Source: Candidatus Micrarchaeia archaeon
Lineage (GTDB): Archaea > Micrarchaeota > Micrarchaeia > Anstonellales > JAHKLY01
Direction: 5' to 3'
Length of the DNA stretch: 64,000 nt
NCBI GenBank assembly: GCA_041653315.1
Contig: JBAZFO010000003.1
Coordinates: 1,180 to 65,179, forward strand
The translations under genes and the position numbers were made by a program. How positions within the stretch are numbered: position 1 is the stretch's first letter; each line of letters starts with the position of its first letter. Positions 14,365 through 62,676 of the stretch are shown in pieces. The notes below the pieces were generated by a model. That model searched no databases and was not told the DNA's origin. It worked only from the letters and a program-made list of their open reading frames with translations.

Positions 14365-14502
14365 GGGCTCGTAACTCAGCTTGGTAGAGTGGCTGGCTTT
14401 TAACCAGTAAGCCAAGGGTTCAATAACCTTTTTCTTTCTTGCAAGAAAGTAAAAGCTTAACCAAAAAGAAAGAAACTGGAAGAATAAATCCCTTCGGGCC
14501 CG
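14365..14502 (+). tRNA. tRNA-Lys (anticodon UUU) with a roughly 61-nt intron inside the T-loop (between TTCAA and AT, position 58/59)
   Basis: Acceptor GGGCTCG/CGGGCCC, D arm ACTC...GAGT, anticodon stem-loop GCTGG CTTTTAA CCAGT. T stem AAGGG...CCCTT is split by an intron that carries the hairpin TTTCTTTCTTGCAAGAAAG. Poly-T follows. Confidence 0.7.
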
Positions 14503-14550
14503 TTTTTTACTTATAGGAATTGTTATAAAACTCTTTGGAGAGACTAATAT

Positions 14551-15150
14551 ATGGAAATAGAATTCAAAAATAAAGAAATACATCTTAAAAGAGATACCTC
14601 CGAATTAGATAAATTTGTATTTGAAACAGTAAAAATAGTAAAAAAACATACAAAATATGTAATAATTAGTGGATATATTGCAATTCTTTTTGGTCGAGCA
14701 AGAGGAACAGAGGATATAGATATGTTTATTGAAAGAATTGATTTCAAAACTTTTGAAAAGATGTTTGATGATTTACTTGAAAATAATATGTGGTGTATAA
14801 ACGGAAGTAATAAAAGAAAAATGTTTGATTTATTAGAAGATAATCTAGCAATAAGATTTGCAAAAAAAGATACAGTTATCCCGAATTTTGAAATAAAATT
14901 TATAAAAGATATATATTCAAAATACTCTTTGGATAATAAAATAAAAGTAATACTTAATAAAGAAGAATTATATACTTCTTTACTAGAAATGCAAATACCT
15001 TATAAATTAAAATTAGGTTCTGAAAAAGATTTAGAAGATGCAACACATTTATATGTTTTATTTGAAAAATATTTAGATATGCAAAAAATGAAGGAAATAG
15101 CAAAAATGCTAAAAGTGGATTTGGGTGTATTAAATGAGAGATTACAATGA
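14551..15150 (+). CDS. Nucleotidyltransferase-fold protein (Pol beta-like minimal NTase, toxin-type)
   Basis: ISGYIAILFGRARGTEDIDMFIE matches the G[SG]-x9-13-[DE]h[DE]h NTase signature. Confidence 0.5.
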   Translation: MEIEFKNKEIHLKRDTSELDKFVFETVKIVKKHTKYVIISGYIAILFGRARGTEDIDMFIERIDFKTFEKMFDDLLENNMWCINGSNKRKMFDLLEDNLAIRFAKKDTVIPNFEIKFIKDIYSKYSLDNKIKVILNKEELYTSLLEMQIPYKLKLGSEKDLEDATHLYVLFEKYLDMQKMKEIAKMLKVDLGVLNERLQ

Positions 15151-15330
15151 AAAAAAACAAAGAATAGAATTTGTCAAAACTTGGGCAGAATATATTAAAA
15201 ACACCCCAAACTCTATTTGGTCAAAACAATATGTGATGTTTATTAATAGCATAATGAAATCTACTCTTCAAGATAAAGAAATTTATTTTAAAACACATAA
15301 AATAAATACTCAAAATTAATTGGTGTAATT

Positions 15331-15996
15331 ATGAATAAAAAAATAATAAAAATATTCCCAGGAGTATTTGAAATTGAAAGAAGAATTGCTACAAAGAATT
15401 TAATTAAAGGTAATCCTGTTTATGGAGAAATTATAAAAAAAATAGATAATGATGAATATAGGTTTTGGGACCCTCATAGAAGTAAATTATGTGCTGCAAT
15501 TAAAAGAGGAATAAAAGATATTTATATTAAAGAAGGAGATAAAGTATTATATTTAGGGGCAGCAACTGGAACAACATCTTCTCATGTTGCAGATATTATA
15601 GGCCCTAAAGGAGTAGCTTACTGTGTTGAATTTGCACCTATTTCATTTAGGAAACTTATTCATGTATGCGAAAATAGAACAAATATGATCCCAATAATGG
15701 GAGATGCAAGGAAACCAGATATGTATACTGAAGTTGGAGAAGTAGATATTGTTTATGAGGATGTAGCACAACCAGATTTAGCAGAAATACTATTAACAAA
15801 TTGCAGATATTTCTTAAAAAAAGGAGGATATGCAATGCTTGCTGTTAAATCACAAAGTATTGATGTTACTAAAGATCCAAAACAAACATATGAAGAAACT
15901 ATAAAAAAATTAGAAAAAGAACTAAAAATTGTTGAAACAATTATCTTAGATCCATATGAAAAAGACCACCTGTTTATTGTAGCTCAAAAAATTTAA
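15331..15996 (+). CDS. flpA: Fibrillarin-like rRNA/tRNA 2'-O-methyltransferase
   Basis: FWDPHRSKLCAAI, AdoMet motif YLGAATGTTSSHVADI; 221 aa. Confidence 0.9.
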   Translation: MNKKIIKIFPGVFEIERRIATKNLIKGNPVYGEIIKKIDNDEYRFWDPHRSKLCAAIKRGIKDIYIKEGDKVLYLGAATGTTSSHVADIIGPKGVAYCVEFAPISFRKLIHVCENRTNMIPIMGDARKPDMYTEVGEVDIVYEDVAQPDLAEILLTNCRYFLKKGGYAMLAVKSQSIDVTKDPKQTYEETIKKLEKELKIVETIILDPYEKDHLFIVAQKI

Positions 15997-16745
15997 TGAC
16001 CAAAATATAATTTTACTGCATACATAAAACCTATTCCTATTAAAAACATTAAAAATACTAATATAGAACGTTTCGTATCTTTTTGTTTATGTAATTCTGG
16101 AATTAAATCTGAAGATGCGATATAAATAAAACCTCCTGCTGCAAATGGAAGTAAAAAGGAAGTAAAATTTGGAATATAAATATAAGTTAAGGCACCGATT
16201 AATGCACCTAACACTGCGGTTAATCCAGAAGCAAAATTAAATAATAATGCTTTTTTCTTTTTCCATCCCCCATATAATAAAATAGCAAAATCTCCTATTT
16301 CTTGAGGTATTTCATGCGCTATAATCGCTATTGTTGTTGTTATACCAAAAGGAACGCTTACAATAAATCCAGCAACTATTATTAAACCATCAATAAAATT
16401 ATGAACTCCGTCTCCTATTAAACTCATATATGTAAATGAATGAACTTCACATTCATGTTCATGACAATGGTGCCAAAATAAAAATTTCTCAATTAAAAAA
16501 AATAATGAAAAACCAATTAATACACAAAAAAATGGATCACAAGAAGATACTTCTAACGCTTCTGGTAATAAATGTAAAAAAGCTCCGCCCATTAAAGCGC
16601 CTGCTGAAAAAGCAACTAATAAAATAAGAATTTTTTTTAATTTATCTTCATTTAAACTTAAAGTAATTACTCCTATAAAAGAAAGTAAACTTACAATAAA
16701 TGCAGCACTTATTGAATATATTAAAACTTCATTCATTTTTATCAC
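15993..16745 (-). CDS. ZIP-family divalent metal transporter (ZupT-like)
   Basis: Multi-TM, HNFIDGLII and HEIPQEIGDFAIL signatures. His-rich loop HHCHEHECEVH. Confidence 0.8.
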   Translation of the reverse strand: MIKMNEVLIYSISAAFIVSLLSFIGVITLSLNEDKLKKILILLVAFSAGALMGGAFLHLLPEALEVSSCDPFFCVLIGFSLFFLIEKFLFWHHCHEHECEVHSFTYMSLIGDGVHNFIDGLIIVAGFIVSVPFGITTTIAIIAHEIPQEIGDFAILLYGGWKKKKALLFNFASGLTAVLGALIGALTYIYIPNFTSFLLPFAAGGFIYIASSDLIPELHKQKDTKRSILVFLMFLIGIGFMYAVKLYFGH

Positions 16746-16974
16746 ATTAAAATTTAATATAAAATTATCTCAGAATAAATTTATAAAACATAGCTTTATA
16801 AACGAAAAACACGTATAATATTATAGGCAATGAAGTCACCGTCCCAGTATGAGATTAACGATGATTACCGGAGTAGCTACTGAGCCCATTATTATATTTT
16901 TTAATATTTTATACTCCATTACTTTTTTTACCAAAGTTATACTTTTATATAACTTTCGTAATATAATATCTTCT

Positions 16975-17619
16975 ATGGAATTACCAATTGAGAAAAAATT
17001 AAAAAAACAAGTACATTTAGAAACTGCTATTTTACAAGATATAATAATGGAAAAACTCGTTTATTCCTTAGACTTAGTTCTTCATGGAGGAACTTCTATA
17101 TGGCGAGTATATAAAGGAAATCGGTTTTCTGAAGATTTAGATTTTTATATGGAAAAATGGGAACCTGATAAAATAAAAGAAACTTTAAAAGAATTAGAAA
17201 TTTTTGAAATGAAACTCAAAAAATTTAAAAAAACAAAAAATACTGTTTTTTCAGTAATTGAAAAAAACAATGTAATTGTAAAAGTAGAAGCTTCTAAAAA
17301 ACACTGGAAATTTAAAGAAATGTTAGGAGAATATGAAAAAACAAATGGAAGTTATCTTCCTATTAGTACATTATCAGCAGAAGATTTATTCAAAGAAAAA
17401 ACAAAAACATATTTAAATAGAAGATTGATAAGAGATATTTATGATATATATTTCTTATTCCATCAGTGCGATTTTAAAAAAATAGAAAAAACAGGTAAAG
17501 AATTTATAAAAAATATCCCTTTCCCAAAAGATGAAGATGTTTTAAAATCATTAATTTTAACAGGAAAAGTTCCAACATTTAATGAAATAAAACTAAAATT
17601 ATTAAATTGGTTTAAATAG
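16975..17619 (+). CDS. AbiEii-type nucleotidyltransferase (DUF1814-like toxin of a type IV TA/Abi module)
   Basis: GGTSIWRVYKGNRFSEDLDFY matches the AbiEii GGTAL...RFSEDIDF signature. The track ORF begins at 16849, but the first 42 codons are hydrophobic low-complexity, so ATG at 16975 (MELPIEKK) is preferred. Confidence 0.6.
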   Translation: MELPIEKKLKKQVHLETAILQDIIMEKLVYSLDLVLHGGTSIWRVYKGNRFSEDLDFYMEKWEPDKIKETLKELEIFEMKLKKFKKTKNTVFSVIEKNNVIVKVEASKKHWKFKEMLGEYEKTNGSYLPISTLSAEDLFKEKTKTYLNRRLIRDIYDIYFLFHQCDFKKIEKTGKEFIKNIPFPKDEDVLKSLILTGKVPTFNEIKLKLLNWFK

Positions 17620-17627
17620 GTGAAATT

Positions 17628-18137
17628 ATGAAATATTCGTTAGAAATATTCAAATCAAAAAAATATCCTGTTTTTACGTTTAAAGATATTAAACAATTAA
17701 AAATACCTAAAAACTATGCAAAACAACTTATGTATAATAAAATAAAAAGAGGAGAAGTAAAAAGAATTAAAAAAGGGTATTATACTTTTCACGAAGATCC
17801 AATGATTGTAGTATTTGCATATGAACCAGCATATCTAGGATTAGAATCAGCATTAAGTATACATAAGGTTTGGGATCAAAAAACTGTTCCTGTGATTATA
17901 ACACAAAAAAACGTTAGACAGGGAATAAGAAAATTTAATAATACAAATTATGTTGTTAAAAGAATAGCACCCTCTTTATTTACAGATTACACAACCATTA
18001 ATTATTATGGGTTTTGGCTTCCTGTTTCAACTTTAGAAAAAACTTATGAAGATATCAAATATTTTAATGAAAAAATAGATCCAAAAACTATGAGGAAATT
18101 AAAAAAACTAATTAAAAAAAATAAACTTAAAAAATAA
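17628..18137 (+). CDS. AbiEi-like putative antitoxin/transcriptional regulator (wHTH N-terminus)
   Basis: N-terminal YPVFTFKDIKQL...KRGEVKRIKKGYYTF resembles the AbiEi N-terminal domain. Start is 9 nt after the AbiEii stop. Confidence 0.4.
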   Translation: MKYSLEIFKSKKYPVFTFKDIKQLKIPKNYAKQLMYNKIKRGEVKRIKKGYYTFHEDPMIVVFAYEPAYLGLESALSIHKVWDQKTVPVIITQKNVRQGIRKFNNTNYVVKRIAPSLFTDYTTINYYGFWLPVSTLEKTYEDIKYFNEKIDPKTMRKLKKLIKKNKLKK

Positions 18138-18149
18138 GAAAAAAGAAGT

Positions 18150-18686: not shown

Positions 18687-18797
18687 TATACCTCTCCTCC
18701 CCTTTATTTTATATATTATTTTATGTGTTTTTTCTTTATAAATGTTTCTATTAATGTATGACTATGTTAATACTACTATATTATTTTAACTGCCTTT

Positions 18798-18884
18798 TTA
18801 AATCTTTAACTGTTTTAGCGCTATTTATTATATCCTTATCCTGCGCCCAGCCTTTTCGCGCTGTTCCTATTCCTAATTCAATAT
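18798..18884. repeat. About 85-bp direct repeat, copy 1 (intergenic, upstream of gdhA). It is a displaced copy of the polX 3' end
   Basis: Identical to 20250..20335. Its reverse complement encodes IELGIGTARKGWAQDKDIINSAKTVKDL, the PolX C-terminus. Confidence 0.85.
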
Positions 18885-19015
18885 AACTACTAAACTTACA
18901 AATAATACATACATTGCTTCTAAAAACATAGGTGTATAAATCTTTTGTGTGTAATAATATCCTTCTTTATTAATTATCCCCTAAAAAATTCTATTAAAAT
19001 CTGAAAGGTGATTAA

Positions 19016-20233
19016 ATGAGTGTTTTTGAAAATAATATAAAAAGATTAGAAAATTTAAAAGATATAATACCAATAACAAAAAAAGAAATGGAAATTTTAA
19101 CTAATCCTAAAAAAGTGCTTAAAGGAAAGATAAAAATAAAGGACAAAGAATACGAAGCGTATAGAATAATATTTAATGATTCATTAGGTCCTGGAAAAGG
19201 TGGAATAAGGTTTCATCCAAAAGTAAATGAAGATGAGGTAAACTCATTGGCTTTTTGGATGGCTTTAAAAAACTCATTAGTTGGATTACCTTATGGCGGA
19301 GCTAAAGGAGGAGTAAATATTGATCCTAAACAATTAACACAAAAAGAATTAGAAGAAGTAAGCAGACAATATATGCAATTATTTTATGAAAACTTTGGAC
19401 AAAATAAAGATATTCCTGCACCAGATGTTAATACTAATTCTCAAATAATGGCTTGGATGCTTGATGAATATGAAAAAATTAAAAATAAACATGAATTCTC
19501 AATGATAACTGGAAAACCTATTGAATTAGGTGGGTGTGAATTAAGAGCAGGAGCAACAGGACAAGGAGGAGCAATTGTTTTAGATAATATAATAAAAAAA
19601 TTGGGAAAAAATCCAGATGAAACTACCGTTGCTATTCAAGGCTTTGGAAATGTTGGATTATATCTAGCTAAATTTTTATTTGAACGAGAGTATAAGATAA
19701 TTGCAATTAGTGATATTTCTGGAATGGTCTATGATAAAGAAGGTTTAAACATAAATAATTTAATCAATGATATGAAAGGAAAAGAATATCTAAAAGACTG
19801 CGGAATGGAAATAAAAGATAAAGAAGAATTATTATATTTAGAATGCGATGTTTTAGCGCCTTCTGCTTTAGAAAATCAAATAACAAAAGAAAACGCAGAT
19901 AAAGTAAAGGCAAAGATAATTTTGGAAATGGCAAATGGCCCAATAACTTCAGAAGCAGATGAAATTTTAAATAAAAATGATATTTTAATTATACCTGATA
20001 TTTTAGCAAATTCAGGAGGGGTTATTGTAAGTTATTTTGAATGGGTTCAAAATAAATTAGGTAATTTCTTTGAAATGGAAGATTTAGAAAGAAAATTAGA
20101 ATGTATATTAAACAAAACAACAGATAAAGTATTTAATCAAGAATTAAAAGACAAATATAATTTAAGAACAGTTGCTTATGCGCTTGCTATAAAAAGAATT
20201 TTAGATGCAGAAAAACTAAGAGGCAACTGCTAA
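19016..20233 (+). CDS. gdhA: NAD(P)-dependent glutamate dehydrogenase
   Basis: Catalytic LPYGGAKGGVNIDP and Rossmann GFGNVGL. AGGTGA Shine-Dalgarno-like motif 7 nt upstream. Confidence 0.9.
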   Translation: MSVFENNIKRLENLKDIIPITKKEMEILTNPKKVLKGKIKIKDKEYEAYRIIFNDSLGPGKGGIRFHPKVNEDEVNSLAFWMALKNSLVGLPYGGAKGGVNIDPKQLTQKELEEVSRQYMQLFYENFGQNKDIPAPDVNTNSQIMAWMLDEYEKIKNKHEFSMITGKPIELGGCELRAGATGQGGAIVLDNIIKKLGKNPDETTVAIQGFGNVGLYLAKFLFEREYKIIAISDISGMVYDKEGLNINNLINDMKGKEYLKDCGMEIKDKEELLYLECDVLAPSALENQITKENADKVKAKIILEMANGPITSEADEILNKNDILIIPDILANSGGVIVSYFEWVQNKLGNFFEMEDLERKLECILNKTTDKVFNQELKDKYNLRTVAYALAIKRILDAEKLRGNC

Positions 20234-21936
20234 TTTTTTATTTTTTTTATTAAATCTTTAACTGTTTTAGCGCTATTTATTATATCCTTATCCTGCGCCC
20301 AGCCTTTTCGCGCTGTTCCTATTCCTAATTCAATAAATCTTAGATGATCAATTGAATGTGAATCTGTTCCTATTGATAATTGTACTCCTTTTTGTATTGC
20401 GCGCCTTATATTATCTGCGCTTAAATCTAATCTATCCATATAACAATCTATTTCTAATGTGGTATTTGTTTGTTTTGCTTTTTCAAATATCTCATCTAAA
20501 TTTAAATTATATCCATCTCTTTTACCTATAACTCTTCCTGTTGGATGTGCTATTATATCAACATTTTCATTTTCCATAGCATTCATTATTCTTTTAGTCA
20601 TGTCTTTTTCAGACATTTTAAAATTGGAGTGAACTGCACCTAAAACAATATCTAATTCTTTTAAAATATTATCAGGAACATCAATTGAACCATCTTTTCT
20701 TATGTTTGCTTCAACTCCTTTTAATACTGTTATTCCATTTACTTCTTTATTTACTTTATCTATTTCTTTTGCTTGTTTTTCAAAATCAATTTCTTTTAAT
20801 CCTTGAGCAATTACTAAATCAGCTAATGAATGGTCTGTTATAAGAATATATTTATGGCCTAATTTTTTAGCTGCTAGAGCCATTTCTTTAATTGAATTTG
20901 AACCATCACTCCAAGTAGAATGCATTTGTAAATCTCCATATACTTTTGAAATTAAATTAGGTATTTTATTTTTTTCAGCTAATTCAATTTCTCCATTATT
21001 TTCTCTTAATTCTGGGGGAACATATTGTAAATTTAATTTTGAATAAACTTCTTTTTCTGTTTTTCCTGCTTCTTGTTTTTTATCTTTAAAAAGTCCGTAT
21101 TCATTTAATTTCAATTTATTTTTCATTGCTATTCTTCTTAAAGCAATATTATGTTCTTTTGAACCCGTAAAATACATCATTGCTGAACCAAATTCATTTT
21201 CATTAAATATTCTAAAATCACAATCAATTCCTATATTCAAAAAAGCAGTGCTTTTTAATTTTCCTTTTGATTTTATTTTTTCAATATATTTTAAAGATGT
21301 AAATTTATCCATTGCTTTTTGTGGATTATCTGAAACAACCAAAATATCTATATCTCCAATAGTTTCTTTCATTCTTCTTAATGAACCTACAAGTTCTATT
21401 TGTTTTATTGATTTTTCTTTTTTTAACTCACTTTTTATTTCATTTGCTATAGGTAAAACATAACCTAATAACTGCCTTCCTTTTATTCTTGAAAGCATTT
21501 GTATCCCATTTAATATTTCTTCTTCTGATTTTTCTCCAAAACCATCTAATTCTTTTATTTTATTATTTTTAACTGCTTTTTCTAATTCATTTAAATTTGT
21601 TATATTTAATTTTTCATATAAAATCTTTATTTTTTTAGGACCTAATGAAGGAATTCTTTTTAAAGAATCAAAATCAACAGGAATTTCTTTTTTTAATCTT
21701 TCATATGTTCCTATTTTTCCTGTTTCTAAATATTCTATTATTTTCTCTTTTGTTGATTTTCCAACTCCTGAAATTGAATCTAATCTTTTTTCTTTATATA
21801 ATATTTCAATATCTTCTTGGAGCATTTCTATTGAAGTTGCAGCATTTCTATATGCTCTTGGGCTCCAATCAACTCCTTTTAATTCTAATAAATCAGCAAT
21901 TTTATAAAATATATTAGCTATTTCTTGATTTTTCAT
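20230..21936 (-). CDS. polX: Family X DNA polymerase with C-terminal PHP phosphoesterase domain (PolX)
   Basis: HhH GVGKSTKEKI, pol beta NTase GSLRRMKETIGDIDILV, PHP motifs LQMHSTWSDGS and HS..DH. Confidence 0.85.
   Translation of the reverse strand: MKNQEIANIFYKIADLLELKGVDWSPRAYRNAATSIEMLQEDIEILYKEKRLDSISGVGKSTKEKIIEYLETGKIGTYERLKKEIPVDFDSLKRIPSLGPKKIKILYEKLNITNLNELEKAVKNNKIKELDGFGEKSEEEILNGIQMLSRIKGRQLLGYVLPIANEIKSELKKEKSIKQIELVGSLRRMKETIGDIDILVVSDNPQKAMDKFTSLKYIEKIKSKGKLKSTAFLNIGIDCDFRIFNENEFGSAMMYFTGSKEHNIALRRIAMKNKLKLNEYGLFKDKKQEAGKTEKEVYSKLNLQYVPPELRENNGEIELAEKNKIPNLISKVYGDLQMHSTWSDGSNSIKEMALAAKKLGHKYILITDHSLADLVIAQGLKEIDFEKQAKEIDKVNKEVNGITVLKGVEANIRKDGSIDVPDNILKELDIVLGAVHSNFKMSEKDMTKRIMNAMENENVDIIAHPTGRVIGKRDGYNLNLDEIFEKAKQTNTTLEIDCYMDRLDLSADNIRRAIQKGVQLSIGTDSHSIDHLRFIELGIGTARKGWAQDKDIINSAKTVKDLIKKIKN
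20250..20335. repeat. About 85-bp direct repeat, copy 2 (native polX 3' end)
   Basis: Identical to 18798..18884. Confidence 0.85.
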
Positions 21937-22026
21937 ATAAAACTAACATACGTAATGTTTAAATTAATTTTATAAATATTTCAAATCTATAGAAAGCTAT
22001 ATAAACATATAGAATAATATAACATT

Positions 22027-22242
22027 ATGACAAATACAACAATTATGATTGATTTAGAAATAAAATCTGCATTGGATTCTCTTAAAATACATCATAGAGA
22101 ATCATATAAAGAAATTATTGAAAAACTTATTAATTTTTATTTAGATGAAAAAAAATTGAAAAATTTTGTAGATGAAGCACAAAAAGAAAAAATAAAGGAG
22201 CTTTGGGATAATGAATGGGATGAAATCTGGAACACAGCTTAA
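22027..22242 (+). CDS. Small antitoxin-like protein (MazE/RHH-like), putative partner of the downstream PemK/MazF-like gene
   Basis: 71 aa, acidic C-terminus, overlaps the next gene by 32 nt. Assignment is by context. Confidence 0.35.
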   Translation: MTNTTIMIDLEIKSALDSLKIHHRESYKEIIEKLINFYLDEKKLKNFVDEAQKEKIKELWDNEWDEIWNTA

Positions 22243-22537: not shown

Positions 22538-22546
22538 AAGAGGATG

Positions 22547-25836: not shown

Positions 25837-26433
25837 ATGAAAAATATAATTAAAATTTATGAAGCACTGATTAATCGAAAATCAAAAATATGTCATAGAA
25901 AAGAAATTATTGATATAATCAAAGAATATAATAAAAAATTTGGGAAAGTAAACATTAAAAACACGCTAAAATATCTTTCAAGACATAAATATACTATACG
26001 AGTATTCAAAAAGTTCTATTATATAAATTCATTAGATGAAAAGGAGCGTAAATTTTGTTTATTTGAAGATAGAGAATTATTATTTTCTGTATTAAACAAA
26101 CTCGATATTAAATGGTATGTTGGACTTAACTCTGCTTTATACATTTCTGGAGAAATTTGGCAAATACCAAACATATTGACAATAGTAAACAACAAAATAA
26201 GTGGAAAAAAATCAATACTTGGAATTACTGTTAGATTCTTCAAAATAAAAGAATCTTTAATTTTCGGCCTTAAGACAAAAAAAACTAAAAATAAAATTAA
26301 ATTTTATTACTCTAATCCCTCAAAAACTTATTTAGATTTAGTATATTTCAAACAATCTAAAAAAATTATTTTAAAGGAAAAAACTAAAAATTATCTTAAG
26401 AGGTATCCAAAATGGCTCAAAAAATTAATATAA
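25837..26433 (+). CDS. AbiEi-like antitoxin/regulator
   Basis: N-terminal wHTH-like LKYLSRHKYTIRVFKKFYYI. Overlaps the downstream AbiEii gene by 22 nt. Confidence 0.5.
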   Translation: MKNIIKIYEALINRKSKICHRKEIIDIIKEYNKKFGKVNIKNTLKYLSRHKYTIRVFKKFYYINSLDEKERKFCLFEDRELLFSVLNKLDIKWYVGLNSALYISGEIWQIPNILTIVNNKISGKKSILGITVRFFKIKESLIFGLKTKKTKNKIKFYYSNPSKTYLDLVYFKQSKKIILKEKTKNYLKRYPKWLKKLI

Positions 26434-27329
26434 ATAAATACATTGCAGAGGTCAAAAGGAATCTTGGAATAAAAGTTTCAGATGAAATAATTGAAAAAGA
26501 CCTGCTTCTGACTATTATTTTAGGGGAGTTTGAAAAGCTCGGGCTTGGAAAAGAACTTATTTTTAAAGGAGGAACTCTTTTATCGAGAAATTATTTGAAT
26601 TACCATCGATTTTCTGAAGATTTGGATTTTGTTCATCATAAATCCAATAAATTAAGAAAAATGAAAAGAAGAACAAGAGAAAAGGAAATTAAAAAATTCA
26701 TAGATTCATTTGTTCCAAAAATATATACATTAGCTGAAAACCTTGAACTTATATTTAGTAAAAATAGAAGTGATACAAAATTCTGTACTATTCTTCATGG
26801 AAGGACAGTATATATTTTCAGAATGTATTATTCTAACTCTAGATTTATAAAAATTGAGATTAATTTTATAGAAAAAATTATTCACAAACCAGTAAAAATT
26901 TCAATAAAAACAATAACTGATCTTTTTGATTCAAAAGAACTTGTGTTCAGTCTTGGGCTTGATATTCAAAACTTTAATATAAAAAGCTATTCTATAAATG
27001 AAATACTCATTGAAAAATACAGGGCAATTTTAACAAGAAAAGACTTAAAAGAAAGGGATTTGTTTGATTTATTTTTTATTCCAAATTCTCTTTCAATAAA
27101 AAAATCTGAAATAATACAAAAAATAAGTGCTTCATCATTAATAAAACGGGATCTTAATAAACTAATAGAAAAAAAACTTACTTTACTTGAAAAAAACAAT
27201 TTTTTTGAGAGTGATGAAAATATGGAATACCTAGCAATCGCTAATTATGATAAAAAGAAATTTGAAAAATTTAAGGAAAAAATAAAACCAAAACTAATAG
27301 AAATTTGCAAGACATTTTTAAGTAAATAG
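26412..27329 (+). CDS. AbiEii-type nucleotidyltransferase toxin (DUF1814-like)
   Basis: KGGTLLSRNYLNYHRFSEDLDFVH signature. Confidence 0.7.
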   Translation: MAQKININKYIAEVKRNLGIKVSDEIIEKDLLLTIILGEFEKLGLGKELIFKGGTLLSRNYLNYHRFSEDLDFVHHKSNKLRKMKRRTREKEIKKFIDSFVPKIYTLAENLELIFSKNRSDTKFCTILHGRTVYIFRMYYSNSRFIKIEINFIEKIIHKPVKISIKTITDLFDSKELVFSLGLDIQNFNIKSYSINEILIEKYRAILTRKDLKERDLFDLFFIPNSLSIKKSEIIQKISASSLIKRDLNKLIEKKLTLLEKNNFFESDENMEYLAIANYDKKKFEKFKEKIKPKLIEICKTFLSK

Positions 27330-27346
27330 CCTGCCTCAGACTCTGT
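27321..27346. repeat. 26-bp direct repeat, copy 2
   Basis: Identical to 25653..25678. Confidence 0.8.
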
Positions 27347-27476
27347 CAGCCTTCTCATCGCATTTCTGCTAAACGGTTGTTCATGTCATCATCGGCTTTG
27401 TCTATAATATACGAACATTTCTGCGCATAATATCATAGACAATTATATTTATGCTTTTTCCCTTTATAAATATTAC

Positions 27477-28567: not shown

Positions 28568-28810
28568 TGCTCCGGCCGGGATTTTCTCCCAGTTGGCTTT
28601 TTTGCGCCAGCCAAGGTTTTGAATTCTCGAGCCTACAGGGTTCTTTTCTTTCCCTGGGGTTTCTTTTCTTACAAGAAAAGAAAGGCCACCCGGGTCGCCA
28701 GGGATCTCCAAATTTTCTTTTTCTTTCCCAAGGGTTTCTTTTTCTTTTCAAAAAAGAAAAAGAAAGGCTTTGAGAGCCTGGTATCCTTGACCGGACTAGA
28801 CGACCGGAGC
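28568..28810 (-). tRNA. tRNA-Glu (anticodon CUC) interrupted by three predicted introns: in the anticodon loop, at the T-stem/T-loop junction (about 53/54) and within the T-loop (58/59)
   Basis: Exons read GCTCCGGTCGTCTAGTCCGGTCAAGGATACCAGGCTCTCA / CCCTGGCGACCCGGG / TTCAA / ATCCCGGCCGGAGCA. Joined, they give a canonical archaeal tRNA-Glu (GACCCGGGTTCAAATCCCGGCCGGAGCA). Poly-T follows. Confidence 0.6.
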
Positions 28811-28814
28811 TTTA

Positions 28815-28928
28815 CGAATGTAATGAGTAAAGCGAGGTCTTTTTGCAACAGCAAAACAGACCGGAGCAAACGAACGTTAGTGAGTTTGTGAGGTCTTTTT
28901 GACAAAGTCAAAACAGACCGGAGCAAAA
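28815..28928. repeat. Two tandem units of about 57 bp upstream of tRNA-Glu. Each ends in a copy of the tRNA 5' end (GCTCCGGTCTG) embedded in a GGTC...GACC hairpin
   Basis: CGAATGTAATGAGTAAAGCGAGGTCTTTTTGCAACAGCAAAACAGACCGGAGCAAA versus CGAACGTTAGTGAGTTTGTGAGGTCTTTTTGACAAAGTCAAAACAGACCGGAGCAAAA. Confidence 0.7.
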
Positions 28929-31865: not shown

Positions 31866-31977
31866 TGGGCCTGGTGAGATTGTCAGACTTTCTGGCAATA
31901 TTTTGCGCCAGTAAAATCAATTGAACTCACGATCTTTGTCGTGTGAGGACAACATCATACCACTAGACCACAGGCCC
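31866..31977 (-). tRNA. tRNA-Val (anticodon CAC) with a roughly 40-nt intron in the T-loop (58/59)
   Basis: GGGCCTG TG GTCTAGTGGTATGAT G TTGTC CTCACAC GACAA AGATC GTGAG TTCAA[intron]AT CTCAC CAGGCCC A. Intron contains the CTGGCGCAAAATATTGCCAG hairpin. Confidence 0.7.
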
Positions 31978-32081
31978 ATAGACTGTGGGCTTTTGAACAA
32001 AGTTCAAAACAAACCACAGGCTCTTAAGAATTTTTTAATCTTCTCAATATTATAAATATATAAAAACATTCGCTTATTAAA

Positions 32082-40185: not shown

Positions 40186-40293
40186 TGGGCCCAGTGAGAT
40201 TTGAACTCACGGCCTCTCGATTATCAGTCGAGCGCTCCAACCATTTTAGGCTTATTTAAATCTTACTAAATAAACTGACTAAGCTATGGGCCC
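40186..40293 (-). tRNA. tRNA-Ile (anticodon GAU) with a roughly 31-nt intron in the D-loop
   Basis: GGGCCCA TA GCTT AGTCAG[TTTATTTAGTAAGATTTAAATAAGCCTAAAA]TGGTTGGAGC G CTCGA CTGATAA TCGAG AG GCC GTGAG TTCAAAT CTCAC TGGGCCC A. T-loop is intact. Confidence 0.65.
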
Positions 40294-41289: not shown

Positions 41290-41460
41290 TCTTTTATTTG
41301 GAGAAAAAAAGGCAGAAACACAAAAAGAGAATAGTGTTTTTGGTGTGTTGTGGGAGGTGAAAACTGCCTTTTTCCCCTTTGCTCTTTTTGCCGCACGGCA
41401 AAAATAAAAATGGAGATTAAATCTCCGTTTGGGTCGCCTTGCCAGCGTGTATAGCAAGTA
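41290..41460 (-). ncRNA. GC-enriched structured leader or candidate small RNA upstream of 40354..41286
   Basis: Hairpins GGAGATTTAATCTCC, GCCGTGCGGC and a GGCAG...CTGCC-closed element containing TCACCTCC. Base composition is anomalous for this genome. Confidence 0.3.
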
Positions 41461-41483
41461 TGATTTTTGATTTTATATGAAAT

Positions 41484-55429: not shown

Positions 55430-55496
55430 ACAATAATATTAAAAAGAAAGCATTTCATAATATTATTTTATAATATTAAATTACACTTCTAAAACA

Positions 55497-58319
55497 TTGA
55501 AAGGTGAAAATATGAAAAAAATAAATGAAGCAGAATGGGAAATTCCAAAAGAAGGCAATATGAATGTACCAATAAAAATTATTGGAACTGAAAAATTAAT
55601 TGAACAAATGAAAAGAGACAGAACATTTAATCAAATAAAAAATGTATCAACATTACCAGGGATTATTAAACATGCATTAGTGATGCCTGACGGCCATGAA
55701 GGATATGGTTTTCCTATTGGGGGGGTTGCTGCATTTGATTTAGAAACAGGAGTTATACCTCCAGGAGGGGTCGGATATGATATTAATTGTTTAACTGGAG
55801 ATACAAAAATTCCAACACCATATGGATGGTATCTAAAAATAAAAGATTATAATTTTCTATCTGATATTTCATTAGTAACAAATGGAAATACATATCTATT
55901 CAATACTCTTCAAAATTATTTTGTTTCTTCAAAACAAGGCCAATCAAAAGTTAAAAATTTTATGTATAAAGAATATAAAGGTGAAATATATAAAATAAAA
56001 ACAACTGCTGGAATACTAAAATGTACGGAAGAACACCCTATATTTACTATAAATGGAAAAAAATCAATAGATATTTTAACAATAAAAGATATGATTTTAT
56101 GCAACCCACATTTAGGGGTAGAATATAAAAAATACAAAGGAATTGAAGAAGATAAAAAATTATCTATATTTAGTAAAATTTTTGGATATCTTCTTGGAGA
56201 CGGAACAATTTATAAAACTAAAAACAAATTTTATGCAGTAGCTTATGGAACAGAAGAAGACCTTAAAAAAATGTCAATTGATTTAAAATCAATTGGTTAT
56301 TCTTCAAAAACATATCACAGATTAAGAGACCACTGTATAAAAGGAAAAAGTTTCAAAGCAGATAATTGGGAATTACATATTTATTCAAAGGAATTTATTG
56401 AAAAACTAATTAAACTTGGAATGCCTTTAGGAAATAAAACTAAAACAAAATTTGAAATACCTAATTGGATAATAAAAGGACCTAAATGGATAAAAAAACA
56501 ATTTTTAGCCGGGTATTTTGGAGCAGAAATGTCTAAACCTAAAAGTATGAGTAAAACATGCTTATATTTACCAGATGTAACAATGACAAAAGAAACAAAA
56601 TTAATAGACAATCTCAGATTTTTTATGCTACAGATAAGCAAAATATTAGAAGAATTTGATATAGAAGTATCAAAAATCTCAATTATTGAAAATGAAAAAG
56701 ATAAAAGTAGAATACGACTACTTATTAATGGTAAACCTAAAAATTTAATAAAACTTTATTCAAAAATTGGATTTGAATATAATAATAAAAGAGACTTTTT
56801 AGCAAAATGTGCAATATTATATTTAAGAAAAAAAATTAAAAATAAAAAAGAGAGGAGTGAATTAGCAAAATGGATTAAAAATAAAAAAGAACAAGGATTT
56901 AAAGCTAAAGAAATCAAAAAAATATTAAATGAAAAAATCAACGATAGGTTCATTGAGAGAGCATTTTATGAAAATTGCACTACAAGATTAACTCTTGATT
57001 TTCCATCTTTCAAAAACTTTGTCAAAGAACAAAAAGAATATTTTGAAGTTTATGGTACATTAATAGCTGAAATCATATCTATAGAAAAAAGAAAATTTGA
57101 AGGAAGAGTTTATGATTTCACTATAGAAAAAGATCACAATTTTGTTGCTAATGGAATTATAGTTTCAAATTGCGGGGTGAGATTAGTAACAACTGGTTTA
57201 ACTGTGGATCAAGTTAAACCAAAAATTGATGTTTTGATTAAAAAATTATTTGATAATGTCCCATCTGGTGTAGGTTCAAAAAGTAAATTACGTTTAGATG
57301 AAAATCAATTAAAAGATGCTTTAATAAACGGAGTAGAATGGGCAGTTAAAAATGGATATGGAAGACAAGAAGATATTGAAAATTGTGAAGAATATGGAAA
57401 AATGGAAGGTGCAGATCCATCCGCTATATCACAACAAGCACTAAAAAGAGGAAAACCTCAATTTGGAACATTAGGTGCAGGAAATCATTTCTTAGAAGTT
57501 CAGAAAGTAGATGAAATTCTATCTCCAGAAATAGCTGAAAAATTTGGTTTGAAGAAAGACCAAGTTGTTGTAATGATTCATTGCGGTTCAAGAGGATTAG
57601 GACATCAAATATGTGGAGATTATATTGATATAATGCTTAGAGCATCTGAAAAATATGGAATAAAATTAGCTGATAAAGAATTATGTTGCGCCCCAATAAA
57701 ATCTGAAGAAGCACAAAATTATATGAAAGCAATGAAATGTGCTGTTAATTATGCTTTTACAAATAGACAAGTAATAATGCATTGGGTAAGAGAAACTTTT
57801 GATGAAGTTTTTGGAAAAGGAACAAGTAATGATATGCATCTAGTATATGATGTTGCACATAATATAGCAAAAATTGAAGAACATGAAGTAGATGGGAAAA
57901 CAATGAAAGTATGTGTACATAGAAAAGGAGCAACAAGAGCATTTGCAAAAGGAAGGAAAGAATTACCTAAAAAATATATTGATATCGGACAGCCAGTTCT
58001 AATACCTGGTAGTATGGGAACTGCATCTTATGTTTTAGTTGGAAAACAAAAAGGAATGGAAGTTTCTTTTGGTTCAACATGTCATGGGGCAGGACGTGTA
58101 ATGTCAAGATCAGAAGCAATAAGGTCTTTTACTTTTAATCAAATCAAAGAAGAAATGAATGCAAAAGGAATAAAATTATTAGCTGCAGATAGACAAGTAG
58201 CACAAGAAGAAGCTTCAGGAGCATATAAAGATGTCGACGAAGTAGTTAAAAGCGTTGCGTTAGCAGATATTAGTGAAATAGTTGTAAAATTAAAACCAAT
58301 AGGTGTTGTAAAAGGATGA
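55497..58319 (+). CDS. rtcB: RtcB-family RNA 3'-phosphate ligase (tRNA-splicing ligase) interrupted by an intein
   Basis: Exteins: ...PDGHEGYGFPIGGVAAFD...GVGYDIN / CGVRLVTTG..., with HxxGxRG-type catalytic His motifs in the C-extein (GAGNHFLE, HCGSRGLGHQ, CHGAGR). Joined extein is 479 aa. Confidence 0.9.
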   Translation: MKGENMKKINEAEWEIPKEGNMNVPIKIIGTEKLIEQMKRDRTFNQIKNVSTLPGIIKHALVMPDGHEGYGFPIGGVAAFDLETGVIPPGGVGYDINCLTGDTKIPTPYGWYLKIKDYNFLSDISLVTNGNTYLFNTLQNYFVSSKQGQSKVKNFMYKEYKGEIYKIKTTAGILKCTEEHPIFTINGKKSIDILTIKDMILCNPHLGVEYKKYKGIEEDKKLSIFSKIFGYLLGDGTIYKTKNKFYAVAYGTEEDLKKMSIDLKSIGYSSKTYHRLRDHCIKGKSFKADNWELHIYSKEFIEKLIKLGMPLGNKTKTKFEIPNWIIKGPKWIKKQFLAGYFGAEMSKPKSMSKTCLYLPDVTMTKETKLIDNLRFFMLQISKILEEFDIEVSKISIIENEKDKSRIRLLINGKPKNLIKLYSKIGFEYNNKRDFLAKCAILYLRKKIKNKKERSELAKWIKNKKEQGFKAKEIKKILNEKINDRFIERAFYENCTTRLTLDFPSFKNFVKEQKEYFEVYGTLIAEIISIEKRKFEGRVYDFTIEKDHNFVANGIIVSNCGVRLVTTGLTVDQVKPKIDVLIKKLFDNVPSGVGSKSKLRLDENQLKDALINGVEWAVKNGYGRQEDIENCEEYGKMEGADPSAISQQALKRGKPQFGTLGAGNHFLEVQKVDEILSPEIAEKFGLKKDQVVVMIHCGSRGLGHQICGDYIDIMLRASEKYGIKLADKELCCAPIKSEEAQNYMKAMKCAVNYAFTNRQVIMHWVRETFDEVFGKGTSNDMHLVYDVAHNIAKIEEHEVDGKTMKVCVHRKGATRAFAKGRKELPKKYIDIGQPVLIPGSMGTASYVLVGKQKGMEVSFGSTCHGAGRVMSRSEAIRSFTFNQIKEEMNAKGIKLLAADRQVAQEEASGAYKDVDEVVKSVALADISEIVVKLKPIGVVKG
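55788..57170 (+). mobile_element. Intein (461 aa) with LAGLIDADG homing endonuclease inserted at the GYDIN/CGVR site of RtcB
   Basis: Starts CLTGDTKI (Cys1) and ends ...GIIVSN followed by Cys+1. LAGLIDADG blocks IFGYLLGDGTIY and FLAGYFGAEMSKP. Confidence 0.8.
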
Positions 58320-58328
58320 GGTGAAAAT

Positions 58329-59096: not shown

Positions 59097-59144
59097 ACAT
59101 CTCCTTTTTAAATTTTTTTATTGTAATAATCTCGGCGAGATTGA

Positions 59145-59906: not shown

Positions 59907-59980
59907 GTTTAAAAACACCTATTTATTTAATAATAATATCGAGATGTGAGCTTTAAGCTTGAATCGACTAATTCATAGAG

Positions 59981-60517
59981 GTGAGTTCCATGGGATTATA
60001 TACCTGGATAAAGAAAAGTTTTCAAAATGAGTATAAAACAGGAAGTTTAGAATATAAACAAAGACTTCAAGATTGGAGAAAAGAAGGAGTAATTACTTAT
60101 GTTGGAAAACCAACAAATATTGCAAGAGCAAGATCCTTAGGATATAAAGCAAAAGAAGGTTTTTTTGTAGTTAGAGTAAAAACTAAAAAAGGTAGAAGAG
60201 CAAGAAGTGCACCTGTTGGGGGTAGAAAACCAAGTAAAAATTTTAAATACATTTCCCCAGGAAAATCATATCAAGCTCAGGCAGAAGAAAAAGCTGCAAG
60301 AAAATATTCAACTAGGGAAGTACTTAATTCCTATTGGGTAGGAGAAGATGGGCAACAAAAATATTTCGAAGTAATAATGTATGATTCTACTTTAAATACA
60401 ATACCAAAAGAATTAAGAAATAAAAAAGGTAGAGCATTTAGAGGATTAACAAGTATTGGCAAAAAACACAGAAGTATGAGACATAGAGGAAAAGGCATGA
60501 ATAGGCCAGTAAGATAA
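59981..60517 (+). CDS. rpl15e: Ribosomal protein L15e
   Basis: YKQRLQDWRKEGVITYVGKPTNIARARSLGYKAKEGFFVVRVKTKKGRRAR matches L15e. Confidence 0.85.
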   Translation: MSSMGLYTWIKKSFQNEYKTGSLEYKQRLQDWRKEGVITYVGKPTNIARARSLGYKAKEGFFVVRVKTKKGRRARSAPVGGRKPSKNFKYISPGKSYQAQAEEKAARKYSTREVLNSYWVGEDGQQKYFEVIMYDSTLNTIPKELRNKKGRAFRGLTSIGKKHRSMRHRGKGMNRPVR

Positions 60518-60524
60518 GATTACT

Positions 60525-60977
60525 ATGTACAATATTGTTTTAAATAAAATAAAGGAAAATTTTGATTTTGAGGAACTTTTCCTTTATACCTCTTTTTCTA
60601 TTTTTAAAACAGATAAAATAAGAATCGCATGTTCCCAATGTAAAAAAAATAAAATTATATACTTAGAAACATACGAGCCTTCAATGGAAATAATTCAAAA
60701 ACTTAAAGAAAAAAAAAGTATTTTACTTATAAATTTATTAGATATAATAAATAAAGAAGGCCCAAATAGAAGTATTTTAATAAATAGAATAAAATTATTA
60801 TTAAAATTATGTATAAAATATAAAATAGAATTTATATTTTCTTTTTTAGCTTTAAATGAAATGGAAATGAGAACTTTTAAAGAAGGTATTGCGCTTGGGG
60901 TTTTATTAGGTTTAAAACCAATTCAAGCTAAAAATGCATTTATTAATATTAAAAAATTAACTGAAAAAGAGGAATAA
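60525..60977 (+). CDS. Possible reduced RNase P protein subunit (Rpp30-like position), hypothetical
   Basis: Assigned only by its position between rpl15e and the Pop5 gene (the conserved archaeal L15e-Rpp30-Pop5 order). At 150 aa it is shorter than typical Rpp30; no motif confirmed. Confidence 0.3.
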   Translation: MYNIVLNKIKENFDFEELFLYTSFSIFKTDKIRIACSQCKKNKIIYLETYEPSMEIIQKLKEKKSILLINLLDIINKEGPNRSILINRIKLLLKLCIKYKIEFIFSFLALNEMEMRTFKEGIALGVLLGLKPIQAKNAFINIKKLTEKEE

Positions 60978-60981
60978 AAAA

Positions 60982-61308
60982 ATGGGAATAAAGCCTACTG
61001 CAAGAATGAAAAAGAGATATATTGCATTTCAAGTTATTGGAAAAGATGCAGATAAAATTAGTGATATTGAAATTAAAAATACATTTTATTCTATTCTTAA
61101 TCAGCTTTATGGAGAAATTGGTTTTTCAAATTTAGGTTTTAATTTAATTGAATATAAAGAAAAAAAAGGAATAGTTCGTTTTAGAAGACAAGAATTAGAA
61201 AAAGCAATATCTAGTTTTGCATTTATAAAAAATATAAACAACAAAGAAGCTCGTTTATCTCCTTTAAGTACTAGTGGAAGTTTAAAAAAATTAAGAGAAA
61301 AGTTATAA
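60982..61308 (+). CDS. RNase P protein component Pop5 (Rpp14 homologue)
   Basis: KRYIAFQVIG near the N-terminus and SGSLKKL near the C-terminus fit the Pop5 RYI.FE ... SGT pattern; 108 aa. Confidence 0.65.
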   Translation: MGIKPTARMKKRYIAFQVIGKDADKISDIEIKNTFYSILNQLYGEIGFSNLGFNLIEYKEKKGIVRFRRQELEKAISSFAFIKNINNKEARLSPLSTSGSLKKLREKL

Positions 61309-61893
61309 TTCTTGTTCTAATTCATTTAATACTCTTTTAAGATTATATAATTTACCTAAAACAAATGGGTCTTCTGTTTTTTCATATATTACTTGATAAT
61401 ATTCCTTTCTATTAGAAAAAGCTAAAAATAAATCTCTTTTTAAATTTAAAAAATCAATATAATTTTTATCAGAATCTAATTTATTTTGCATAAAGGGTTT
61501 TAACTCTTCAGTAATATATCTTAATTTAAATAGACAATCTAAATTCTTTCCAAGTTTCGTTAATTCTAATGCTTTTTTAGAAGCCAACAATAAATTTTTA
61601 GATGCAAATAACATTCTTTCAATATACAAGTCTTCTGAAATATCTGTATCCAAAGATAATAATTTTGAAGATTTTAAAGCAAATTTTGCTGCTTTCGCAA
61701 ACTGATTATTCTCTGCAAAATATTCTGCTAACTCCCATAGATGATTGGATAACTTATTTTTTGAAGAAATTGAATTACCACCAAATATTTTTGCACTCAA
61801 AATTTTAGTATTTAAAAAAATTTGAATTGCCCTATCTTGTAAAGGTACTGGAAAAAAATCTCTTTGTATTTTTGTATTAATTTCTGATAACAT
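61303..61893 (-). CDS. Alpha-helical hypothetical protein (paralogous to the next gene)
   Basis: HLWELAEYFAENNQFAKAAKFALKSSKLL resembles LSELAFSNHRFEVAKRKKSLLKY in 61915..62325. Confidence 0.3.
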   Translation of the reverse strand: MLSEINTKIQRDFFPVPLQDRAIQIFLNTKILSAKIFGGNSISSKNKLSNHLWELAEYFAENNQFAKAAKFALKSSKLLSLDTDISEDLYIERMLFASKNLLLASKKALELTKLGKNLDCLFKLRYITEELKPFMQNKLDSDKNYIDFLNLKRDLFLAFSNRKEYYQVIYEKTEDPFVLGKLYNLKRVLNELEQEL

Positions 61894-61914
61894 ATTTACA
61901 CTTCCATTATTAAC

Positions 61915-62325
61915 TTATATTCCATATATTCTTTTAAAACTAGTATTTCTTCCTTCTTTTATTTCCTCCTCAGTTAATTCAACATCTTCAACATAACTTA
62001 AGAATTTTTCTATTTGTTCTAATTTCTTTTCGCTATTTAAGTTTTCAAAACAATCTTTTGCACACAAAAGCATCATTTTAGCCAATTTTCTTTCTTGCTC
62101 TCCTCCTTTATTTAATAAAACCTTTGCTCTTCTTAAACAGATATCTCCTGCTGAATTATATTTTAATAAGGATTTTTTTCTTTTTGCTACTTCAAATCTA
62201 TGATTTGAAAAAGCTAATTCACTTAACATTTTTGCTTGTATCCAAACATACATTCTTTCTCTTAAAGTTAATTCAGATATAATAAACTCTTTAGGTTCTG
62301 TAAATCTACTTACCAAATTAAACAC
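61915..62325 (-). CDS. Alpha-helical hypothetical protein
   Basis: ORF only; paralog of 61303..61893. Confidence 0.3.
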   Translation of the reverse strand: MFNLVSRFTEPKEFIISELTLRERMYVWIQAKMLSELAFSNHRFEVAKRKKSLLKYNSAGDICLRRAKVLLNKGGEQERKLAKMMLLCAKDCFENLNSEKKLEQIEKFLSYVEDVELTEEEIKEGRNTSFKRIYGI

Positions 62326-62459
62326 CTCTCTAATTAATATTAGTTTTGTGTTAAAATATATATTTAGTTGTATTTAAAAAGGTTTTTATATGGGGATTTA
62401 TAAAAAAACGCTGGAGCAAATAAAATTTGCTTGGTGCATTTTTTCTACAGAAAAAATAG

Positions 62460-62676
62460 CGCCGAGGGAGGGATTTATTCAATTTCTTTCTTTTTGGTTA
62501 AGCTTTTTCTTTCTTTTTAAAGAAAGAAAAAGGTTATTGAACCCCCAAGTCCGTGAAGACACACGATTTCTTATTTTTATTTTGTTTTCTTTTCTTTGCT
62601 TAAGCTTTCTTTTCTTTTCCAAAAGAAAAGAAAGGTTATTCCAGTCGTGCGCACTACCAGATTATGCGACCTCGGC
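62460..62676 (-). tRNA. tRNA-Ser (anticodon GGA, long variable arm) with two introns: canonical 37/38 in the anticodon loop and a second in the T-loop (58/59)
   Basis: Exons GCCGAGGTCGCATAATCTGGTAGTGCGCACGACTGGAA / ATCGTGTGTCTTCACGGACTTGGGGGTTCAA / ATCCCTCCCTCGGCG. Variable-arm hairpin GTCTTCACGGAC. Poly-T follows. Confidence 0.6.

Follow-up and report, generated by a model that had tools for sequence, protein, structure and literature searches.

Introns that interrupt the T-arm of transfer RNA (tRNA) genes are already on record in the Micrarchaeota. In ARMAN-2 (Candidatus Micrarchaeum acidiphilum), pre-tRNA-Cys carries an intron between positions 59 and 60 (59/60), pre-tRNA-Pro(GGG) carries introns at both 53/54 and 59/60, and the splicing endonuclease is of the epsilon2 type (Fujishima et al. 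2011, PMC3239211). Other DPANN archaea show marked disruption of their tRNA genes, incomplete predicted tRNA sets, and variants of the splicing endonuclease EndA with an L3 loop (Kaneta et al. 2018, PMC5829648). For the Thermoproteales, transposition of introns was proposed in 2010 from similar intron sequences in different tRNAs (summarised in PMC4033280 and PMC4090602). The DNA described in this report, a 64-kb stretch of contig JBAZFO010000003.1 from a Candidatus Micrarchaeia archaeon (hereafter the window, meaning the whole stretch analysed), contains five tRNA genes, and all five are interrupted, with eight inserted segments in total. We think it very likely that these genes are split by short, protein-spliced introns of the bulge-helix-bulge (BHB) type.

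The window resembles ARMAN-2 in several respects. Both belong to the same phylum-level group, in both the 59/60 site is used and the T-stem forms the outer helix, and both have strict as well as relaxed forms of the BHB; the double interruption of one T-arm at 53/54 and 59/60 recurs here in the tRNA-Glu genes of the window and of a closely related metagenome-assembled genome (MAG), JAHKLY01 (locus L001). The differences are mainly of frequency and sequence. T-loop introns are unusual cases among the 43 tRNA genes of ARMAN-2, whereas here they occur in four of the five genes of the window and in 14 of the 15 that could be parsed from the clade; half of the T-loop introns fit a 58/59 register that recruits G53, and the intron sequences form recognisable families. 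The 58/59 introns of the Lys and Ser genes are a neighbouring variant of the ARMAN-2-type 59/60 intron. An initial annotation of this DNA, made from the sequence alone, had called a near-universal T-loop intron striking; as such, T-loop introns are not new, given the published 59/60 and 53/54 plus 59/60 cases of ARMAN-2 (PMC3239211). T-loop introns were thus already known in the Micrarchaeota, and the window is an unusually dense case; what goes beyond the literature examined is the near-universal T-loop occupancy in one sub-lineage, the 58/59 register recruiting G53, and a family of introns with rapid turnover.

The genes were found by scanning for a T-stem and an acceptor stem separated by a gap, together with direct reading of the sequence, and the coordinates of all their parts were re-extracted and confirmed (Table 1). 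ARAGORN reported no tRNA gene in the raw window, and Rfam returned only acceptor-less fragments there (Lys and Ile at the gathering threshold, Val below it) and none for Glu or Ser. When the intervening segments were removed in silico, ARAGORN called all five genes as canonical cloverleafs, Lys(ttt), Glu(ctc), Val(cac), Ile(gat), and Ser(gga), in agreement with the five genes and the places given for them in the initial annotation. Its description of the Lys, Glu, Val, and Ser genes also held: the 3' strands of the T-stem and acceptor stem directly abut a T-run, and the partner strands lie upstream of a T-loop insert of 36 to 65 nucleotides (nt). No further tRNA genes turned up in the window when acceptor-stem pairs ahead of a T-run were sought in a second and independent scan. 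These structures are not chance arrangements, since in the relatives the exons are identical or differ by compensatory changes while the introns diverge.

The failure of standard predictors (ARAGORN 0/5, Rfam fragments only) is what has been reported for other DPANN archaea (PMC5829648); the counts in that study are per genome, and a T-loop bias or intron families like those of the window are not among its results. Rfam likewise detected no disrupted tRNA gene in four related loci. Because the standard finders miss every tRNA gene here, the tRNA counts of such DPANN MAGs, and the completeness estimates and codon-usage inferences drawn from them, will be wrong unless BHB-aware searches are used.

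In a BHB motif a central helix of 4 bp (H) lies between two 3-nt bulges, each of them cut after nucleotide 2, and is flanked by one helix on the exon side (h) and one in the intron (h'). We scored this motif for each possible split of the interrupted 7-nt loop, so that the search was restricted in register. Near-strict hBHBh' motifs are formed at Glu 37/38 (H CTCT/GGAG 4/4, h 5, h' 2), Glu 53/54 (H 3/4, h 2, h' 5), Glu 59/60 (H 3/4, h 5 from the T-stem, h' 3), and Val 59/60 (H TTCA/TGAC 3/4, h 5, h' 6). Relaxed forms are seen at Lys 58/59 (H GTTC/GAAT 4/4, h 2, h' 0), at the T-loop site of Ser, 58/59 (H GTTC/GAAT 4/4, h 4 when slipped, h' 2), and at Ser 37/38 (H 3/4, h 8, h' 0). The cut rule was checked on the D-loop intron of tRNA-Ile, where H, read by hand, is TTAG/CTAA (4/4) and the cuts restore a textbook D-arm of GCTT/AGTCTGGTTG/GAGC; the exon-side helix at this site is weak. 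The scores single out one register for each intron, and within the T-arm they favour 58/59 for two introns (Lys and Ser), 59/60 for two (Val and Glu), and 53/54 for one (Glu).

The initial annotation had placed the T-loop introns of all four genes at exactly the same site, TTCAA^AT, corresponding to 58/59. The interruption of the T-loop in four of the five genes stands, and TTCAA^AT is compatible with the sequence of each; all four can be read as TTCAA...AT plus the stem, and the mature loop of Glu is TTCAAAT under either register. A single cut site at A58/A59, with the 59/60 assignments of Val and Glu as artefacts of helix counting, is nevertheless unlikely. At 58/59 the Val intron yields an H of 1/4 and no h', compared to 3/4 with the 5-bp T-stem and a 6-bp intron helix at 59/60. 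Six more introns fit 59/60 and have UGAN tails (Glu of the window, L001, and L135; Lys of L139; Ser of L121; Thr of L105), with those of L105 and L121 reaching 4/4 in that register, and the published ARMAN-2 site is 59/60 (PMC3239211). The uniform site is the part of the earlier description that we would replace, and to it we add the Glu 53/54 intron, the 37/38 introns of Glu and Ser, and the D-loop intron of tRNA-Ile, a gene that had been called intact.

Across the window and its relatives, seven T-loop introns fit 58/59, all with H 4/4, and seven fit 59/60, with H 3-4/4. In the 58/59 class the partner of G53-U54-U55-C56 is a GAAU or GAAC of the intron, with AA^A or AG^A after it; G53 is drawn out of the T-stem, and the exon-side helix amounts to 0-4 slipped bp. 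In the 59/60 class U54-U55-C56-R57 has UGAC, UGAA, UGAU, or AGAA as its partner, with AA^U, AU^U, or UA^U after it, and all 5 bp of the T-stem act as h. The T-arm of the latter class behaves just as an anticodon arm does, with 59/60 as the equivalent of 37/38. The 59/60 introns and the canonical 37/38 BHB introns (those of EndA and RtcB), which Glu and Ser have here, are alike in geometry: the stem has 5 bp, four nucleotides of the loop pair with the intron, and there are two bulges of 3 nt. Departures from the canonical type are the sites in the T-arm or D-loop and the lack of a regular exon-side helix in the 58/59 class, which would for that reason need an enzyme of broad specificity (PMC5829648).

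Several observations weigh against BHB splicing at the sites assigned here. The Ser 37/38 intron has a mismatch in its central helix and no h', and the 58/59 motif is relaxed rather than strict, without a proper exon-side helix. For the T-loop intron of Glu, cuts at 58/59 and 59/60 leave identical mature sequences, so that helix counts are the sole basis of its assignment, and the 7/7 agreement in register does not amount to seven independent tests, since members of an intron family share descent. Splicing is predicted from the DNA sequence. No EndA was found by Pfam among the ~60 open reading frames (ORFs) of the 64-kb window, and a crude tblastn with an approximate Methanocaldococcus EndA sequence as the query gave no match, which is weak evidence given that query.

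Five of the eight introns in the window, namely the T-loop and 37/38 introns of Ser, the T-loop intron of Lys, and the 37/38 and 53/54 introns of Glu, are members of one sequence family (family 1). They share a layout in which RRCC and a pyrimidine tract are joined by a short loop to the complementary purine tract; a short linker, palindromic or hairpin-forming, then leads to a second purine tract and a site-specific tail. With the relatives included, 14 family-1 introns align, and they occupy the D-loop, 37/38, 53/54, 58/59, and 59/60. The T-loop introns of Lys and Ser are 85% identical, and that of Lys is 88-89% identical to T-loop introns of tRNA-Leu on metagenome contigs NPIE01002073 and NPIE01001064; one of these two Leu genes has family members in its D-, anticodon-, and T-loops together. 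A second and looser family (family 2) is represented by the 59/60 introns of Val and Glu, which have CTGGCGCAAAA in common. Beyond the 15 parsed genes, locus L121 contains at ~10998-11300 (+) a tRNA, possibly Pro, in which a family-1 intron head is followed by ~270 nt, and this expanded intron includes two long tandem copies of an A-rich unit.

Orthologous genes could be compared in genomes whose proteins are 77-83% identical to those of the window (77% for fibrillarin in the syntenic loci L135 and L136). The exons of tRNA-Glu in the window and L001 differ at a single position, 38, which is C in the window and T in L001, and all three sites of interruption are shared. The 53/54 intron is 95% identical between the two, and its changes keep or improve the BHB (CGAG to CGGG), giving an H of 4/4 in L001; the 37/38 and 59/60 introns have strongly diverged. 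The syntenic Glu genes of L135 and L136 are interrupted at 37/38 and at 59/60, at the latter site by an intron of a third sequence (H 4/4), and have no 53/54 intron. The tRNA-Ile gene of L001 has its D-loop intron at the same site as in the window and a compensatory change from A7-U66 to G7-C66; it also has an extra 63-nt family-1 intron in the T-loop, which is precisely missing from the Ile gene of the window. All four tRNA-Lys orthologues have a T-loop intron, and these differ. The window, L134, and L135 have theirs at 58/59, with lengths of 64, 33, and 53 nt, respectively, and L139 has an unrelated intron of 49 nt at 59/60; a D-loop intron is present only in L134 and L139. For tRNA-Val, L001 is not syntenic with the window. 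In more distant loci of Micrarchaeota and Iainarchaeia the tRNAs are mostly uninterrupted, and some are interrupted.

Repeated elements of ~60 nt with inverted repeats inside them and polymorphism between relatives, such as those of family 1, bring to mind miniature inverted-repeat transposable elements (MITEs). Were the inserts MITE-like DNA elements that had inactivated tRNA genes, the loci would be pseudogenes, with functional copies elsewhere. We consider this very improbable. The inserts are present in every tRNA gene of the window and in all but one of those parsed from the clade, and ~60 kb of related contigs yielded no intact tRNA; the exons are perfectly conserved or co-vary across genomes at the protein divergence given above. 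Each insert lies at a BHB-capable site and has a 3' tail that complements the flanking exon, and within the window family-1 elements occur inside tRNA genes only. These elements also lack the marks of a DNA transposon: terminal inverted repeats do not exceed 3-4 nt, and the clean Ile insertion of L001 shows a duplication or ambiguity of 2 nt ('AA') at most.

It could also be supposed that the T-loop inserts stay in the mature tRNA and expand it after A58. In the T-loop motifs of other RNAs the position after 58 generally tolerates insertions, nucleotides 59-60 being bulged out, and T54-A58 are left contiguous in Lys, Ser, and Val. The same family, however, occurs at 37/38 in Ser and Glu, where decoding demands its removal, and at 53/54, where it comes between T-stem and T-loop. 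The orthologous Ile gene functions whether the insert is there or not, BHB-type bulges and helices are found at the junctions, and RtcB is encoded in the window, all of which makes retention extremely unlikely.

Movement of the introns between tRNA genes, as the initial annotation had suggested, is well supported by these sequence comparisons, because near-identical introns (85-89%) are found in unrelated tRNAs, at five positions, and with presence or absence among orthologues. The intron families appear to be spreading still between tRNA genes. The likeness to the Thermoproteales includes multiple introns per gene, an intron content that differs between related genomes, and similar introns in non-orthologous tRNAs. 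The Thermoproteales, however, are hyperthermophilic Crenarchaeota, and the host here is a mesophile-like DPANN archaeon of 25% G+C, from a different superphylum; the intron sequence family is also another one (pyrimidine, purine, and mirror purine tracts), and the T-loop bias is strong. We regard this as the same phenomenon in another lineage and not as membership in the Thermoproteales group. Reviews still treat the gain and movement of archaeal tRNA introns as unexplained, and the present lineage is a tractable one for intron gain, with young families (85-95% identical copies) and clean presence/absence differences between close relatives.

The sequences themselves show the gene structures, the BHB-compatible junctions, the intron families, the differing presence of introns among orthologues, and RtcB; the actual splicing, the exact cut sites, and the type of endonuclease are what we infer from them. 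In the scheme that we propose, each gene would be transcribed into a single precursor ending at the T-run past the discriminator base, EndA would cut each BHB or relaxed BHB after the second nucleotide of both 3-nt bulges, and RtcB would join the exons. The T-arm, with its 5-bp stem and 7-nt loop, shares the geometry of the anticodon arm, which makes 59/60 the structural twin of 37/38. The exon strand of H is the universally conserved T-loop sequence, U54-U55-C56-R57 for 59/60 and G53-U54-U55-C56 for 58/59. Since that strand belongs to the invariant GTTCRA, a T-loop intron would be portable to any tRNA, and one whose UGAN or GAAY lies six nucleotides before its 3' end could be excised from any of them. 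An anticodon-loop intron has to match positions 32-35 of each tRNA, as the GGAG tail in Glu matches CUCU. This portability may explain how two intron families have spread over unrelated tRNAs and over D-, anticodon-, and T-loops, and it offers a simple rule for the T-loop as a universal landing site. An endonuclease of broad specificity, as proposed in the initial annotation, would be expected in this lineage, which would fit the literature on ARMAN-2 and other DPANN archaea (PMC3239211, PMC5829648).

How the introns move we can only infer. The two purine tracts of family 1 mirror each other, so that the second also complements the pyrimidine tract in parallel orientation. In 14 of 15 introns this parallel match is longer than the antiparallel (Watson-Crick) one, by only 1-3 nt, the tracts being nearly symmetric. 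The three tracts co-vary among members, and the short family member of L134 is without the second purine tract. In the minimum-free-energy fold of the Lys precursor, the pyrimidine tract pairs with the second purine tract, closing the intron. A mirror arrangement of tracts is a requirement for a purine-motif triplex or H-DNA, and a triplex reading of the family-1 tracts is speculative.

These features could be combined into a picture of family 1 as a selfish and currently mobile intron, specialised for the T-loop, with its own splice-site helper tail in addition to the three co-varying tracts; on the whole we doubt that this is so. The helper tail, GAAY or UGAA, may be complementary to the universal G53-U-U-C-R57. 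A triplex or H-DNA could then promote recombination, gene conversion, or insertion, and the tandem leader units described below would be by-products of the same recombination activity. Occupancy of the T-loop would be maintained by selection, for example through the destruction of integrase attachment sites in tRNA genes, an idea about introns reportedly put forward by Randau and Soll in 2008.

Upstream of the Glu, Ser, and Val genes there are one or two leader units per gene, each of 44-57 nt, that start with a copy of the first 9-10 nt of the tRNA and fold into stable two-tier hairpins (z -2.6 to -4.6). Beyond the first 9 nt their resemblance to the tRNA is weak. A TATA-like TTTATATAA, identified by eye, lies ~31 nt upstream of the first Glu unit; since this box precedes the first unit and not the tRNA, transcription probably takes in the units as a 5' leader. 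The Glu leader of L001 has one copy (~6012-6069, -) with compensatory changes in its stem. In L136 the Glu array comprises at least five units of three types (~11100-11400, -), the array of L135 contains an assembly gap, and a similar unit precedes tRNA-Ser in L011, a more distant Micrarchaeota MAG (13864-13917, +). Tandem Repeats Finder did not pick up the leader arrays, and a literature search for leader repeats copying a tRNA 5' end found nothing relevant. We tried the alternative that a leader unit is itself an intron, in which case exon 1 would be the copy of the 5' end that lies upstream, and rejected it, as no BHB is formed; the only 4/4 helices are chance matches between identical repeat copies (CCGG, GGTC, and TGTG, for example) and have no flanking helices. 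Our best guess from the sequences is that the units are minisatellite-like partial duplications of the tRNA 5' end, forming a structured leader that would be removed by RNase P.

The G+C content is 25% throughout the window. Its alanyl-tRNA synthetase (AlaRS) is 83% identical to that of Candidatus Micrarchaeota MAG JAHKLY01 and ~50% identical to those of Iainarchaeum and Anstonellaceae MAGs, and its fibrillarin is 100% identical to a protein labelled Candidatus Micrarchaeia archaeon; an exact look-up of the AlaRS gave no record. These AlaRS and fibrillarin matches place the host in the Micrarchaeota/Micrarchaeia, and by sequence the source is a DPANN archaeon of the Micrarchaeia. The earlier reading of the inserts as noncanonical BHB-type tRNA introns is supported, here in a DPANN archaeon. 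Among the ~60 ORFs, Pfam recognised archaeal genes for CDP-archaeol synthase, fibrillarin, ribosomal protein L15e, and diphthamide synthase, as well as a class III signal peptide protein and the intein-bearing RtcB.

A pattern scan of metagenome sequences gave, among the matches listed, 117 of 120 without tRNA context and three that were genuine (L105, L121, and L127). Most of the matches (loci L014-L133) are one recurring GTTCAATAACC-poly(T) repeat that is unrelated to tRNAs; at a guess, it derives from insect (termite) host DNA. These GTTCAATAACC-poly(T) matches are a warning for pattern searches that use T-rich motifs.

Table 1. Positions in the window of the interrupted tRNA genes, their exons and predicted introns, the leader units, and other features
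Feature	Position	Strand	Remarks
tRNA-Lys(UUU)	14365-14502	+	two exons, one intron
Lys exon 1	14365-14423	+	positions 1-58
Lys T-loop intron	14424-14487	+	64 nt, family 1, best register 58/59
Lys exon 2	14488-14502	+	positions 59-73 including discriminator G, then T6
tRNA-Glu(CUC)	28810-28568	-	four exons, three introns
Glu leader units	28811-28924	-	two units of 57 nt, each starting GCTCCGGTC (tRNA 5' end), 12-13 bp hairpin
Glu exon 1	28771-28810	-	positions 1-37
Glu anticodon-loop intron	28704-28770	-	67 nt, family 1, canonical 37/38
Glu exon 2	28689-28703	-	positions 38-53
Glu 53/54 intron	28624-28688	-	65 nt, family 1
Glu exon 3	28618-28623	-	TTCAAA, positions 54-59
Glu T-loop intron	28582-28617	-	36 nt, family 2, 59/60
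Glu exon 4	28568-28581	-	positions 60-73, then T-run
tRNA-Val(CAC)	31977-31866	-	two exons, one intron
Val leader unit	31978-32023	-	one unit starting GAGCCTGTGGT (copy of tRNA 5' end, 1 mismatch), two-tier hairpin, z -4.2
Val exon 1	31920-31977	-	positions 1-59 in the 59/60 reading
Val T-loop intron	31880-31919	-	40 nt, family 2, best register 59/60
Val exon 2	31866-31879	-	
tRNA-Ile(GAU)	40293-40186	-	two exons, one intron
Ile exon 1	40277-40293	-	
Ile D-loop intron	40244-40276	-	33 nt; T-loop of this gene uninterrupted
Ile exon 2	40186-40243	-	
tRNA-Ser(GGA)	62676-62460	-	three exons, two introns
Ser leader units	62677-62772	-	two units (52 and 44 nt), each starting (AT)GCCGAGGT; acceptor-like stem plus inner hairpin, z -3.0 and -4.6
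Ser exon 1	62639-62676	-	positions 1-37
Ser anticodon-loop intron	62568-62638	-	71 nt, family 1, 37/38
Ser exon 2	62537-62567	-	positions 38-58, including long variable arm
Ser T-loop intron	62475-62536	-	62 nt, family 1, 58/59
Ser exon 3	62460-62474	-	then T6
RtcB tRNA-splicing ligase gene	55497-58319	+	with intein; PF01139 (E 2.6e-171), PF14890, PF14528
Fibrillarin gene	15331-15996		
N6 methylase gene	6538-7935		restriction-modification-like
Phosphoenolpyruvate synthase gene	10280-14251	-	with intein
AbiEii/AbiEi pair	16849-18137		toxin-antitoxin
AbiEii-type toxin gene	26412-27329		second of its type
Direct repeat	18779-18888 and 20231-20340		110 nt, 91% identical
C/D box small RNA (likely)	27334-27396	-	
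G+C-rich structured intergenic stretch	41300-41480	-	
RNase P subunit p30 (weak match)	60525-60977	+	below cut-off

Some further features of the window are worth recording. RtcB and phosphoenolpyruvate synthase each contain an intein bearing a LAGLIDADG domain. The intein of the synthase is apparently absent in close relatives, since the protein has 1323 residues here and its orthologues in L134 and L135 have 798-805. No RNase P RNA was detected in the window; in four Iainarchaeia/Diapherotrites relatives (L003, L004, L006, and L007) it adjoins AlaRS. The G+C-rich stretch, with the hairpins GGAGATTTAATCTCC and TTTTTGCCGTGCGGCAAAAA, precedes an unannotated ORF; no Rfam family matches the stretch, which is not a tRNA. 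The likely C/D box small RNA reads GCCGATGATGA ... CTGAGG, with internal C'/D'-like boxes and sub-threshold Rfam matches to sR14 and sR1. The two copies of the direct repeat flank the glutamate dehydrogenase gene, the second being the 3' end of a PolX-like gene, and the gene order around the glutamate dehydrogenase and AbiE genes differs between the window and L134 and L135.

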